A DNA stretch of 39,232 bases from a virus: the IMG/VR virus record IMGVR_UViG_3300014204_000373, one strand, 5' to 3'. Below are positions 14,960-17,782 of the stretch, one piece after another; positions within the stretch are counted from its first letter, which is position 1; every line of letters begins with the position of its first letter. The position numbers and the translations under genes are program-made. The notes under the pieces are model-generated. The model made no database searches and was not told the origin of the DNA. It worked only from the letters and a program-made list of their open reading frames with translations.

Positions 14960-15348
14960 TTTTTGAACTTCGCTGTTGGGTACTTCTCATGCACATACCT
15001 CTTAGCTTCTCGCCTATTATCTGCGCGGAAGGTCAACTCAACTTCTCCGTCCTCTGATGAGCACCAGTAAAGAGGGCGCCCCGTGCCGAAAAGTGTCCCA
15101 AATTTATCATACCCCATACGGTCAAGACGAATCGAGTGCATCTTCATTAGGCTGCCATCGTACACCCCGTACCGGTTGGGTCGGGACGTGAATCCGTTCT
15201 TGAGTTCAGGTTCAGTCTCTCCATCGATCTCAGATAGTAGCCTCTCTTGTAGGCCATGAAGTATCCGGTAGGCGTCGTTTTTCGTTGTCAGAGGCAGTAG
15301 CTCTCGCAGGGCCAAGTCCAACTGATCAAGTATTTCGGTGATTCTCAT
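14956..15348 (-). CDS. hypothetical protein
   Basis: ORF track. In an operon with the HD hydrolase gene. Confidence 0.5.
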   Translation of the reverse strand: MRITEILDQLDLALRELLPLTTKNDAYRILHGLQERLLSEIDGETEPELKNGFTSRPNRYGVYDGSLMKMHSIRLDRMGYDKFGTLFGTGRPLYWCSSEDGEVELTFRADNRREAKRYVHEKYPTAKFKK

Positions 15349-15850
15349 TGGACCCTAGGATCTTTTCGATCTCGGCCATGACGGCCAAGTGACTCTTGGT
15401 TAGCCTGCGCTTGGTGCGCAGGTGCTTGAGGATGATTGCTGTCTCCTCCAACTGTTTGGGGGAAGGGTTGTCTCGAAGGTTCGCCAACCTATCGCAAAGC
15501 TTGAGGAAAAGAGCATAGCTGGACATGCCGGCCATGTGACTCTTCAGGTATTCCAGCTTGCCCATCTTCTTGAGGGCTGCTGAGTCCGAGGTCAGTTCGA
15601 ATACAAGGGAGGCAACCGGCATCCCAAATAGGCGAAGAATCTGGTTGTATGTGGCCTTCGTGTCCTCAACAGTGTCATGAAGGATGGCCGCACAGATTAG
15701 AGTCTCCAATGCCTTCGACCGCTTGTAGCTAGCGGCTAGGTAGGATACAAGTATCGGGTGCGTGATGTATTCAGCCCCCGATACTTTGCGCTTCTGTCCC
15801 CGATGCTTTGAAGTAGCATACTTGAGAGCTTTGAGGATTAGTTCGCTCAT
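15326..15850 (-). CDS. HD-domain (p)ppGpp hydrolase-like protein (RelA/SpoT HD family, small alarmone hydrolase-like)
   Basis: KHRGQKRK...YITHP...AAILHDTVEDT (H..HD..D metal ligands). The ATG is 5 nt downstream of promoter-like element c. Confidence 0.75.
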   Translation of the reverse strand: MSELILKALKYATSKHRGQKRKVSGAEYITHPILVSYLAASYKRSKALETLICAAILHDTVEDTKATYNQILRLFGMPVASLVFELTSDSAALKKMGKLEYLKSHMAGMSSYALFLKLCDRLANLRDNPSPKQLEETAIILKHLRTKRRLTKSHLAVMAEIEKILGSNENHRNT

Positions 15851-15887
15851 GCACCATATTACGCATCAGAATGGTGGATCTCAACTA
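15851..15887 (-). promoter_or_regulatory. promoter-like element c (GTTGAGATC-N17-GCGTAATAT-GGTGC-ATG)
   Basis: It ends 5 nt before the ATG of the HD hydrolase gene. Confidence 0.5.
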
Positions 15888-15974
15888 CTTTAGGTGATAC
15901 TTAGAGATCAATCATCAATTGATAGGAATCTCCTAAGTGTGGGTCGTGGTGTACGACTTATCGGAGGTCCTATA

Positions 15975-16490
15975 ATGCGTAAGCAGCTAAGTATTCTACT
16001 CGCTAGTTTTATGGTGTTTTTCACTTGTACAGGATGTGGTTCAGCCTGGTGGCAGAACTTCAAAACTGACCCAGTGGCCCAAACCAACTCGATCATTCAG
16101 TCTACTCAGGTTGTTCAGGCCCTTGCTGACGTTGTGTTCCAGCAGGTCAAGAGCAACATCCCCGCGGACAAGCAGGTACTAATTCAGCAGAAGTATGATT
16201 CCGCTGTTGTTATTGTGGAGAAGTCCCTGACTGCAGTCCGTGACTTGATTCAAACAGCGGCTGATGCAAAGCAGGACAAGCCAGACTTGACTAAGGTACT
16301 CGCTGACTTGAAAGCTGCTGTTGAAGGTGTACAGGCGGTCATTAACGAAGCTAGGAGCCTCATAGCACATCCCGCTCCGGTTCCGACTGTTGGTGGTGCG
16401 GCCCCGATTGCTGCAGCTCCTCCTGCCGCCCCGATTGGCCTTGATGAGTTCACATCTCAAGCGGAACGCCTGAAGACATCGTTGAAGTAA
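15975..16490 (+). CDS. secreted or lipoprotein-like Ala/Pro-rich protein
   Basis: GGAGGT sits 7 nt before ATG 15975. Signal peptide MRKQLSILLASFMVFFTCTGC. C-terminal AAPIAAAPPAAP low-complexity tail. Confidence 0.55.
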   Translation: MRKQLSILLASFMVFFTCTGCGSAWWQNFKTDPVAQTNSIIQSTQVVQALADVVFQQVKSNIPADKQVLIQQKYDSAVVIVEKSLTAVRDLIQTAADAKQDKPDLTKVLADLKAAVEGVQAVINEARSLIAHPAPVPTVGGAAPIAAAPPAAPIGLDEFTSQAERLKTSLK

Positions 16491-16495
16491 GGTAT

Positions 16496-16945
16496 TCAGT
16501 TCAACTTCGAAGGGTGTGGGTTTAGTCTCACACCCTTCACTGTTTTTGGAGGGGCCCAATTATCCCATTCATCTTCAGTTAGGAGTAAAGACCCAATCGG
16601 CAATGGGTCTACGATACCCCCACTGGAATGGATCTTAACCATCTCACCGTTGAGGTGGGTGATATGGCCTTCCGGATGGCGGATAAAGACTACACACTCT
16701 GCGTGCGAAGACTTGCTTTGCCAACCGTTCTTCTTTTCAGACCAGACGACCAGATCATTATGCTCTAAGGGCTTACCGCACGTGTTACAGCAGTAGGGGT
16801 GGATCTCGACCCGTGCAATCTTTGGGTACTCGACTTGGTCTTCCATACTTGAATGGGTCTTCTTCTTTCTACGGTAGTAACCATAGGTGAGAGTTATGAC
16901 CAGACCTATCAAGAACGCGATACCAAAGTGTACATAATGAGGCAT
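16496..16945 (-). CDS. membrane-anchored protein with a Cys/His-rich C-terminal domain
   Basis: N-terminal TM helix (FGIAFLIGLVITLTYGYY), then YCCNTCGKPLEH. Located 3 nt after the nadK stop. Confidence 0.45.
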   Translation of the reverse strand: MPHYVHFGIAFLIGLVITLTYGYYRRKKKTHSSMEDQVEYPKIARVEIHPYCCNTCGKPLEHNDLVVWSEKKNGWQSKSSHAECVVFIRHPEGHITHLNGEMVKIHSSGGIVDPLPIGSLLLTEDEWDNWAPPKTVKGVRLNPHPSKLN

Positions 16946-16948
16946 AGT

Positions 16949-17782
16949 CTACTCTAGAATCATCGACAGGGGTTCAGTTGAGATCTTGAAGTCCACTCGT
17001 TGTTCGTACTTGACCGGGTGCTGAATGAAGGGGCCATCAAGGTACAGAATTCCGTCGCTGACCTTGGAGATGAGCCTGAAGCTTGTACCGTTCAAGAAAC
17101 ACCTCATAGACTCTCCAGAACCGTTGTAGGGCTCTCGGATGATAGCTTGAAGGCTCTTGTGCTCCGGTGGGTAATCGGTACCGCCTGCTGACTTCATGGC
17201 TCCGGTAGAGCCAGCGCCGGTCCCAACCCACAGACCCGAGCACCCGTAGCGAACCTTACCTAAGACAAATTTGGTCATAGCGGCAGGGCAAACGTGCGAG
17301 AATAGAGCCTCATTCAACACTCGATTCGAGACCACCTTACCCTCGACTAAGACCTGCAGTCGGGTGACCTTCTTGGTCATGCCCATGAAGCTTTTGACCT
17401 TCAGAAAGCCCTCGATGTCTGTTGCGTGAGCTGCGCAAAGGTAACCTGTTGAAGTCCTGGGGTCCGAGTTGACTCCGAGGATCGGAATACCAGCGGGGAC
17501 CTTGTGAGAGGCCGCAAGAAGTGTCCCGTCACCTCCGACTGTGATGACAAGCTTAGTGCTACTGGTGACTTTGAAGTCCTTTTCAGGCCCCCTAACTACT
17601 ACTACTTTTAGACCAAACTTCTCCAGAGCCTCGAGCACCTGATTGACCGACTTTACATGTCGTAGGTGAACTTTTCTAGCCCGGCAAACTGCAGGTAGGG
17701 CTACGCCTTTGAAGCCGTTAGTAGAGTGTAGTAACTGGTCCCATGTACTACGCTTCAGGACTACGATTACTTGTTCCTTCAT
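16949..17782 (-). CDS. nadK: NAD(+) kinase
   Basis: GGDGTLL motif, NEALFS motif and a Gly-rich GTGAGSTGAMKSAGG segment. AAGGAAGG SD. Confidence 0.8.
   Translation of the reverse strand: MKEQVIVVLKRSTWDQLLHSTNGFKGVALPAVCRARKVHLRHVKSVNQVLEALEKFGLKVVVVRGPEKDFKVTSSTKLVITVGGDGTLLAASHKVPAGIPILGVNSDPRTSTGYLCAAHATDIEGFLKVKSFMGMTKKVTRLQVLVEGKVVSNRVLNEALFSHVCPAAMTKFVLGKVRYGCSGLWVGTGAGSTGAMKSAGGTDYPPEHKSLQAIIREPYNGSGESMRCFLNGTSFRLISKVSDGILYLDGPFIQHPVKYEQRVDFKISTEPLSMILE

Follow-up and report, generated by a model that had tools for sequence, protein, structure and literature searches.

The viral record IMGVR_UViG_3300014204_000373, whose whole 39.2-kb stretch was analysed and is referred to here as the window, carries on its minus strand two genes, 1.1 kb apart, that constitute the subject of this study: one predicted to code for a NAD kinase (hereafter NADK) and one predicted to code for a small alarmone hydrolase (SAH), hereafter the HD protein. 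A preliminary description of the window had assigned both of them, together with six other genes, to a counter-defence island. Their positions are as follows.

16949..17782, minus strand: NADK, 277 amino acids, a predicted NAD(H) kinase of "mito-clade" (NADK2/NADK3) type, assigned from Pfam, the best PDB match, AF2/Foldseek and motifs
15326..15850, minus strand: HD protein, a predicted small alarmone hydrolase with the RelA/SpoT hydrolase domain only, Mesh1-like, 174 amino acids, assigned from Pfam HD_4, phrog_990 and PDB matches

NADK matched the N-domain model of the Pfam family NAD_kinase (PF01513) with 33 bits, above the cut-off of 25.5, and gave no match to the Pfam model of the C-terminal domain. 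Against 17 NCBIfam NadK models it scored 20-45 bits, with cut-offs ranging from 211 to 493 (best score 45, for a cut-off of 299). The best sequence match in the PDB was human mitochondrial NADK2, both with the single sequence (5e-11) and with a profile of 15 NADK sequences (4.6e-19, 72 bits). The AF2 model (pLDDT 90.1, pTM 0.87) presents the predicted two-domain fold of NAD kinases, and its top seven Foldseek matches in the PDB were NADK2 structures (TM 0.80-0.83). Indeed, the best 50 matches of the model were without exception NAD(H) kinases (lowest E-value 3e-21), so that the Pfam score, the modelled fold and the structural matches uphold the name that the preliminary description had given to this gene.

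The motifs expected of a NAD kinase are conserved. The GGDG motif occurs as VGGDGTLL at residues 82-89 and was found in all 91 NADK relatives examined; its residues G83, G84, D85 and G86 are invariant in an alignment of 15 homologues. The protein also contains VLNEAL and GTGAGSTGAMKSAGG, and N157, E158, G191-A195 and S198-G201 are invariant in the same alignment, in which GGDG, LNE and GAGSTGAxxSAGG showed no variation among homologues down to 40% identity. Two further motifs, P-h-x-G-h-N-(T/S)-D-P (motif 1) and S-x-G-x-h-(C/M) (motif 2), were described by Ohashi et al. as separating NADK2 (C5orf33) and plant NADK3 from other NAD kinases (PMC3535332). Both are present in the window protein, motif 1 as PILGVNSDP and motif 2 as STGYLC. 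Among the phage copies of NADK, the motif 1 core N(S/N)DP was found in 11 out of 11 and the strict form with the leading proline in six, while the copies from Polyangia read NS(A/S)P at this position; motif 2 occurs in all 11 phage copies and in 74 of 80 Polyangia copies. The insertion known as the "C5orf33 additional region" is absent from the 277-residue protein, the alignment skipping NADK2 chain residues ~146-218 and 266-317. NADK would thus be a catalytically intact NAD kinase of the NADK2/NADK3 type, an assignment that rests on the signature motifs and the ranking of PDB matches and does not make it an orthologue of either enzyme.

The window has a G+C content of 50% and contains about 72 short, densely packed and often overlapping open reading frames (ORFs), those at 8-29 kb mostly on the minus strand. 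A nucleotide search of INPHARED (50,697 deposited phage genomes) returned no match, and no tRNA was found in a search of the window. A look-up by exact protein sequence assigned the window to metagenome contigs, and its relatives are uncultivated contigs of a uniform 435-460 kb with the same gene order, in which GmrSD_N is followed, other genes intervening, by NADK, a small ORF, the HD gene and p130, and then by a protein of 870-930 amino acids with a major-vault-protein shoulder domain. One close relative, L006, whose NADK is 67% identical, is a viral contig of IMG/VR, a collection that contains six further NADK-bearing contigs (116-459 kb) of more distant relationship. Within the window, PHROG matches included the N-terminus of a tail fibre and, weakly, a large terminase, while about 60 of the 72 ORFs match no Pfam family and ~85% have no phage-family match. 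The viral status of L006 and the two PHROG matches agree with the phage nature claimed earlier for the sequence, and we treat the window as a piece of an uncultivated soil huge phage of ~440 kb.

A total of 1,548 NADK relatives were retrieved from the protein database. The closest (66-75% identical) lie on contigs of the phage clade to which the window belongs, and a second tier (42-49% identical) on other huge-phage contigs; overall, NADK is encoded by seven IMG/VR viral contigs (98-459 kb) and by other contigs of 283-443 kb. Cellular relatives (35-42% identical) come almost exclusively from Polyangiaceae/Myxococcota, on contigs of up to 5.7 Mb. In a neighbour-joining tree the phage copies form one clade beside a Polyangia clade, the tree being a rough one, midpoint-rooted and without an outgroup, for which the sequences had been picked with peptide patterns taken from the query alignment. 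These results suggest that the phage kinases constitute a phage gene family of their own. A tblastn search of the 50,697 deposited phage genomes detected no copy, and the literature searched makes no mention of a NAD kinase encoded by a phage or virus; the window gene is therefore, apparently, the first phage NAD kinase. That the cellular relatives, which carry motif 2, stem almost only from Polyangiaceae/Myxococcota may, in addition, be relevant to which hosts these phages infect.

The provenance of the mitochondrial-type NADK2/NADK3 clade has been described as unknown (PMC6675116). It is a possibility that the kinases of huge phages and Polyangia are the long-sought non-eukaryotic relatives of this clade, and the signature common to the phage and Polyangia genes may bear on the origin of the eukaryotic mitochondrial-type NAD kinase.

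The HD protein matched Pfam HD_4 with 48.6 bits (cut-off 27.2) as well as phrog_990, and its match to TIGR00691 spans the hydrolase positions 1-120 only, with no synthetase domain. Its best PDB matches were Mesh1 from Drosophila (65 bits) and human (61 bits), bacterial SAHs reaching at most 46 bits. In the alignment with Mesh1 it keeps all the catalytic and metal-binding residues, within KHRGQKRK, THP, LHD, VEDT, CDRL and NLRD; the Mesh1 residues aligned with these motifs are, in the numbering we assume, R24, H35, H61, D62, E65, D66, D122 and N126. Relatives were found in 188 deposited phage genomes, mostly of jumbo phages. Human MESH1 holds nicotinamide riboside with W138, H141, R142 and E145 (bioRxiv 10.1101/325266). 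These nicotinamide-recognition residues are absent from the HD protein, in which the segment following NLRD reads NPSPKQLEETAIILKHL and no tryptophan occurs anywhere. The HD gene would accordingly specify an intact Mesh1-like small alarmone hydrolase, and its first description as a protein resembling the RelA/SpoT hydrolases is borne out by the HD_4 score and by Mesh1 being its best solved relative.

The following features surround the two genes.

17748..18002, minus strand: ORF of 84 amino acids, its 3' end overlapping the NADK start by 35 nt; annotated in relatives and kept in L003 and L006
16496..16945, minus strand: membrane-anchored zinc-finger protein (CxxC...HAxC) of 149 amino acids, starting 3 nt past the NADK stop
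16509..16538, plus strand: strong terminator-like hairpin from a terminator scan, with a stem of 12 bp and then a run of T, immediately 3' of the lipoprotein-like gene
15975..16490, plus strand: convergent gene between NADK and HD for a lipoprotein-like protein of 171 amino acids with a signal peptide (translation MRKQLSILLASFMVFFTCTGC...)
15856..15884, minus strand: promoter-like element TTGAGA-N17-TAATAT, its end 6 nt upstream of the HD start codon (ATG)
14956..15348, minus strand: p130, ORF of 130 amino acids, overlapping the HD stop by 23 nt
14447..14959, minus strand: p170, ORF of 170 amino acids, overlapping p130 by 4 nt

The promoter-like element before the HD gene is the only sigma-70-like match in 14000-19500. 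In an extended form of 54 nt (15847-15900) it recurs at 34415-34468 and, partly, at 20797-20824, with TTGAGA, a spacer of 17 nt and TAATA[T/A], and each of the three copies stops 2-14 nt short of the start codon (ATG) of a gene on the minus strand, which suggests a phage-specific promoter class with very short or absent leaders. HD, p130 and p170 probably form a three-gene operon, since they overlap by 23 and 4 nt; the earlier proposal that HD is the first gene after a promoter-like element, in an operon with two uncharacterized proteins, is thus plausible, both the element and the overlaps having been confirmed. A search of 5.8 billion proteins yielded only five homologues of p130, every one of them encoded on a contig of the window's own clade, and p170 is broken into two reading frames in L003. 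A toxic alarmone synthetase (toxSAS) or antitoxin was looked for in p130 and p170, and neither protein had a match in Pfam, PHROG, NCBIfam or PADLOC.

In the window a convergent gene, followed by a terminator-like hairpin of its own, lies between NADK and HD, and HD has a separate promoter-like element; the two would therefore belong to different transcription units. The convergent lipoprotein-like gene is a lineage-specific insertion, absent from the close relatives L003 and L006, with a gene for 175 amino acids on the opposite strand at the same site in the related contig P0012. It resembles a moron and could encode a surface or exclusion protein. As for the 149-residue protein, an exhaustive HMMER search placed it in a small protein family characterised by a membrane anchor and a CCHC zinc finger; its confident structure model gave no significant structural match, and neither NADK nor HD was found in the neighbourhood of one of its homologues.

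The adjacency of NADK and HD is present in the close clade, whose NADK shares 67% identity or more with that of the window: in L003 and L006, NADK, a small ORF and HD are contiguous, and in L003 only a gene for 143 amino acids intervenes. Outside this clade, no HD gene was found within 10 kb of NADK at nine more distant phage loci nor within 6 kb at 80 Polyangia loci, and reciprocally no NADK was found within 8 kb of HD on three huge-phage contigs (233-454 kb) with an HD protein 56-65% identical. A deep linkage, examined from the loci of both genes, was consequently rejected, the adjacency being limited to the closest clade. NADK, HD, the DUF262 gene and the NT5C gene (the latter two listed below) are syntenic core genes of this clade; only the segment containing an ADP-ribosylglycohydrolase (ARH), the lipoprotein-like gene and p63 vary between the window and its relatives.

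The gene neighbourhood in other huge phages provided some indication of what the kinase is for. A Pfam census took in 79 ORFs lying no more than 7 kb from NADK at four distant huge-phage loci. Genes for thymidylate synthase (ThyA), dCMP deaminase and dihydrofolate reductase (DHFR) lie 4-6 kb downstream of NADK on the same strand in L007, ThyX lies 3 kb upstream in L011, and a dNMP kinase together with a gene resembling nucleoside 2-deoxyribosyltransferases (NDT) lies 5-6 kb upstream in L009 and L010. RNase HII, D12 methyltransferase, RlaP and topoisomerase I recurred among these loci, and L014 has genes for a dCTP deaminase and a cytidylyltransferase-like nucleotidyltransferase near it. DHFR and ThyX are consumers of NADPH. 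This company of deoxynucleotide (dNTP) synthesis genes is a modest association, the sole positive evidence on the role of the kinase, and points to precursor supply.

The reading that we favour, with guarded confidence, is that NADK and the hydrolase are two independent host-takeover enzymes that make up no functional module. It builds on identities, motifs, fold, synteny and distribution, from which we infer substrates, timing and physiological role. The region would be part of a long leftward block of small early or auxiliary genes in a huge phage of ~440 kb. NADK would transfer a phosphate from ATP (or possibly from polyphosphate, as with human NADK2) to the 2'-OH of the adenosine ribose of NAD+ or NADH, enlarging the NADP(H) pool of the infected cell; the purpose may be to provide NADPH for deoxynucleotide synthesis (DHFR, ThyX and thioredoxin-linked ribonucleotide reduction) while a very large genome is copied. 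The hydrolase would cleave the 3'-pyrophosphate off (p)ppGpp/(p)ppApp, with pyrophosphorylated tRNA as a further possible substrate, keeping the host from mounting the stringent response and blunting toxSAS defences.

Several observations weigh against this reading. The substrates are deduced from family membership only, and with NADK far under all NCBIfam NadK equivalog cut-offs (45 against 299 bits) an altered substrate is possible. The retention of the NADK-HD adjacency while NADK diverges to 67% identity is compatible with a functional link, and Mesh1-type hydrolases are able to dephosphorylate NADPH too (PMC9765508). Besides that, DHFR, ThyA, ThyX and ribonucleotide reductase were not found in the window, so the argument from NADPH demand rests on other phage lineages. 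Finally, L015 has a gene for the anti-CBASS protein Acb5 (13246-13563) 2.4 kb from NADK, and L007 has a LigT/2H-phosphoesterase gene (3246-3830) with a sub-threshold match to Acb1, 6 kb from NADK; a defence-related setting for the kinase is conceivable in view of these neighbours.

The alternative put forward in the preliminary description, that of an island in which eight enzymes are gathered, each reversing one bacterial defence, involves six further genes.

6858..7343, plus strand: ORF named earlier as NDT-like; Nuc_deoxyri_tr2, 20.3 bits (cut-off 30)
18815..19336, minus strand: stand-alone DUF262/GmrSD_N (ParB-like) protein; Pfam GmrSD_N, 45 bits; weak PADLOC match to NsnA-like proteins
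28156..29094, minus strand: DraG-like ADP-ribosyl(arginine) glycohydrolase, ARH; Pfam PF03747, 188 bits, profile positions 1-287 of 287
31618..32202, plus strand: NT5C-type HAD 5'(3')-deoxyribonucleotidase; Pfam NT5C, 41.6 bits; phrog_420 and phrog_2643
33559..33909, minus strand: small NDT-like protein; DUF7768/DUF1937/DUF4406, 39.7/33.7/26.8 bits; phrog_355, 70.8 bits
36308..37258, plus strand: probable Rnl2-family RNA ligase; Pfam RNA_ligase, 65.9 bits; phrog_548, 108 bits; motif I EKLHGSNF

All eight genes lie where they had been reported, and seven of the eight names given to them stand, the PHROG and NCBIfam results being of the same kind. The glycohydrolase is further supported by TIGR02662 (125 bits), phrog_6572 and DraG as its best PDB match (2woc, 2e-24); the NT5C score confirms the deoxyribonucleotidase, which is 90% identical in L003; the ligase is supported by its Pfam and phrog_548 matches and its lysine motif, and as a member of Rnl2 it is probable, its 75 bits against TIGR02307 falling below the cut-off of 197; and the GmrSD_N match confirms the DUF262 protein. 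ARH, Rnl2 and DUF262 have coordinates that start at internal start codons, consistent with their domain boundaries. Two NDT-like proteins had been claimed, of which the one at 33559..33909 is retained on its DUF and phrog_355 matches; the name of the ORF at 6858..7343 was not retained, the sub-threshold Pfam match finding no support in PHROG, NCBIfam or PDB. The DUF262 protein is the most conserved of its block, 92-95% identical in L003 and L006 (67-74% for NADK), which suggests a core rather than an accessory function. ARH sits in a stretch of 4.4 kb (27218-31591) without counterpart at that position in L003, together with two small ORFs, an ORF of 152 amino acids, a tail-fibre-like protein of 450 amino acids and an ORF of 366 amino acids; among these genes only the 450-residue ORF weakly matches elsewhere in the L003 locus. 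One of the small ORFs (27218-27400) has a sub-threshold resemblance to Lar, a restriction-alleviation protein.

According to the island interpretation, NADK and ARH would counter NAD+ depletion and ADP-ribosylation, the hydrolase alarmone signalling and toxSAS, the Rnl2 ligase anticodon nucleases, and the NDT-like proteins and NT5C nucleotide-based signals. Rnl2-type ligases and ARH enzymes do offer plausible repair or reversal chemistry, ARH lies in a variable insertion adjoining the weak Lar-like ORF, and the block is rich in small fast-evolving genes of no recognisable family, as is frequent in anti-defence regions. Acb5 and the sub-threshold Acb1/LigT-like gene, neighbours of NADK at a distance of a few kb in L015 and L007, also speak for it, as does the precedent of PaSpo, the SAH of Salmonella phage SSU5, which neutralises toxSAS toxins (PMC9712102).

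Against these points, the eight genes occupy a span of 31 kb in which ~60 unrelated ORFs are interspersed; they belong to several transcription units on both strands, and only NADK and HD adjoin closely. No known anti-defence family reached threshold among the 72 ORFs, the best candidate being the Lar-like ORF (18.5 bits, cut-off 28.6), and PADLOC returned for the window only a similarity of the DUF262 type. No toxSAS partner gene for the hydrolase and no polynucleotide kinase-phosphatase partner for the ligase were found in the window. Moreover, a NAD kinase consumes NAD+, contrary to the suggestion that it could rebuild it: the phage rescue routes described (NARP1/2/3 and Adpp) need other enzymes, and none of them (Adps, Namat, Nampt, Nmnat, PnuC, NadR or macro-domain Adpp) appeared in Pfam scans of the 72 ORFs. 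The kinase is, furthermore, accompanied by dNTP synthesis genes in other phages. The remaining enzymes (ARH, NT5C, NDT-like, Rnl2 and DUF262) are individually common phage nucleotide or repair genes, scattered in the accessory region, and their apparent enrichment is largely an annotation effect; part of their prominence comes from the lack of names for all other genes, ~60 of the 72 ORFs having no Pfam family. A few recognisable enzymes can, by caution, mimic a themed island where ~85% of the genes are unannotatable. Given this dispersal, the clade-limited adjacency and the location of ARH in a separate insertion, the cluster is not supported as a description of the region, and we consider it unlikely overall. 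Single genes could still act in counter-defence, the alarmone hydrolase above all; it is the only one for which such a role is plausible, on the PaSpo precedent.

Another interpretation takes NADK and the hydrolase as a kinase/phosphatase pair, in which NADK would make NADP(H) and the Mesh1-like hydrolase would return NADPH to NADH, setting the NAD(H):NADP(H) ratio. Their nearest solved relatives, NADK2 and MESH1, are an animal pair with exactly these activities, and the two genes are adjacent throughout the clade, as described above for L003. Mesh1 and the bacterial Mesh1-L SAH also strip the 2'-phosphate of NADPH, the latter in vitro and in vivo (PMC9765508). The hydrolase of the window, however, has neither W138/H141/R142/E145 nor any tryptophan, and XccSAH, which is without the nicotinamide motif, acts on NADPH ~40-fold less well than Mesh1 and favours alarmones ~1000-fold (PMC9765508). 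Adjacency is, in addition, lost in all the more distant NADK- or HD-bearing phages examined and in Polyangia, and co-expression of the two enzymes would make an ATP-wasting futile cycle. We therefore find the pair improbable. A related proposal, of a new NAD-centred escape from NAD+-depleting immunity, is highly unlikely in our judgement: NADK would 2'-phosphorylate NAD+ to NADP+, beyond the reach of NADase effectors or signal-making TIR enzymes, and NAD+ would be regained later through a 2'-phosphatase activity of the hydrolase, expressed from its own promoter.

A different substrate for the kinase-like protein, i.e. another ADP-ribose molecule such as ADPR or the cyclic ADPR immune signal, which it would inactivate, would be consistent with scores far under all NadK equivalog thresholds and with a divergent clade limited to huge phages and Polyangia; such signals would, in principle, be altered if their adenosine ribose were phosphorylated at the 2'-OH. 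This seems most improbable to us in the face of the invariance of all NAD-kinase catalytic and NAD-binding motifs, the superposition of the whole-protein model on NADK2 and a cellular sister clade lying on chromosome-sized Polyangia contigs (up to 5.7 Mb), like a housekeeping gene. A cellular or plasmid origin of the window, with genes of ordinary host metabolism, could be read into the ~85% of ORFs without phage-family match and the lack of a nucleotide match to any deposited phage, and is scarcely credible against the IMG/VR status of L006 and of six more NADK-bearing relatives, the tail-fibre and weak terminase matches, the dense short overlapping genes, the uniform 435-460 kb of the related contigs, the CRISPR-Cas system carried by one of them, as described for huge phages, and a G+C content of 50%, Polyangia being typically high in G+C.

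Some other features of the window and its relatives were noted. Seven small minus-strand proteins share a C-terminal (S/T)RYERxxVI immediately before the stop.

1554-1961, 12000-12443, 12444-12947, 23395-23646, 23643-23990, 25407-25856 and 25853-26155, minus strand: proteins with the C-terminal (S/T)RYERxxVI peptide

Two paralogous pairs aside, their likeness is limited to the last 10-20 residues, and six of the seven gene junctions carry a common 32-nt element with GGTGAT and an ATGA stop/start overlap. The tail, which could be a shared targeting or docking tag, occurs in six copies each in L003 and L006 and was absent from all other loci checked. A protein of 927 amino acids (8750-11533, minus strand) has the Pfam major-vault-protein "shoulder" domain (36 bits) and no PHROG match, and is conserved at 80% identity in relatives (871-893 amino acids). 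Two tandem pairs of apparent paralogues lie on the minus strand: small membrane proteins with a DKC...IC.DGPP motif at 18019-18324 and 18321-18623 (26% identity by tblastn), and proteins of 331 and 325 amino acids at 4744-5739 and 5766-6743, their N-termini alike by eye only and without Pfam match. In the related contig P0012 (435,302 bp), type I-C CRISPR-Cas genes (Cas5d, Csd1/Cas8c and a DEAD/ResIII helicase) lie ~5-10 kb upstream of NADK.

What is new in the window is the NAD kinase of the phage, together with its NADK2/NADK3-type signature. NAD+ is a central battleground between phages and bacteria, on which the phage countermeasures described all rebuild NAD+; a phage NAD kinase would be a different intervention, the control of the NADP(H) branch. 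If the kinase feeds NADPH to dTMP/dNTP synthesis, a cofactor-level auxiliary gene would be added to the huge-phage repertoire.

Among known systems, the closest to the kinase is human NADK2 (C5orf33), together with plant NADK3. The human enzyme is its best match in sequence and structure, with GGDG, the NE/D motif and both signature motifs in common and an N-terminal helix region that aligns, whereas the phage enzyme is only ~20% identical to it, has 277 instead of 442 residues, lacks the additional region and a targeting peptide, and is encoded by a phage. With canonical bacterial NadK/PpnK it shares the two-domain fold and the catalytic motifs, but not the equivalog scores (20-45 bits for cut-offs of 211-493) nor the segment following GGDG, which contains NSDP...S-G-h-C; in E. 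coli NadK the canonical segment is G-h-N-x-G-x-LGFL. The hydrolase resembles metazoan Mesh1, the bacterial Mesh1-L XccSAH and PaSpo in consisting of a single hydrolase domain of ~170 amino acids with all the catalytic residues of the HD motifs, and PaSpo also in being phage-encoded, and it differs from Mesh1 in lacking the nicotinamide-binding residues. NARP1, NARP2, NARP3 and Adpp are likewise phage-encoded enzymes that work on the host NAD pool; they rebuild NAD+ from ADPR, nicotinamide or nicotinamide riboside, whereas NADK consumes it. Lastly, the cyanophage pentose-phosphate/CP12 genes and the dNTP synthesis genes of T4-type phages raise the supply of NADPH or dNTPs. The logic of the kinase, which elsewhere lies near ThyA, DHFR, ThyX, dCMP deaminase and dNMP kinase, may be similar, i.e. 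more reducing power and more DNA precursors, but it would work at the level of cofactor synthesis (NAD+ to NADP+) rather than carbon flux.

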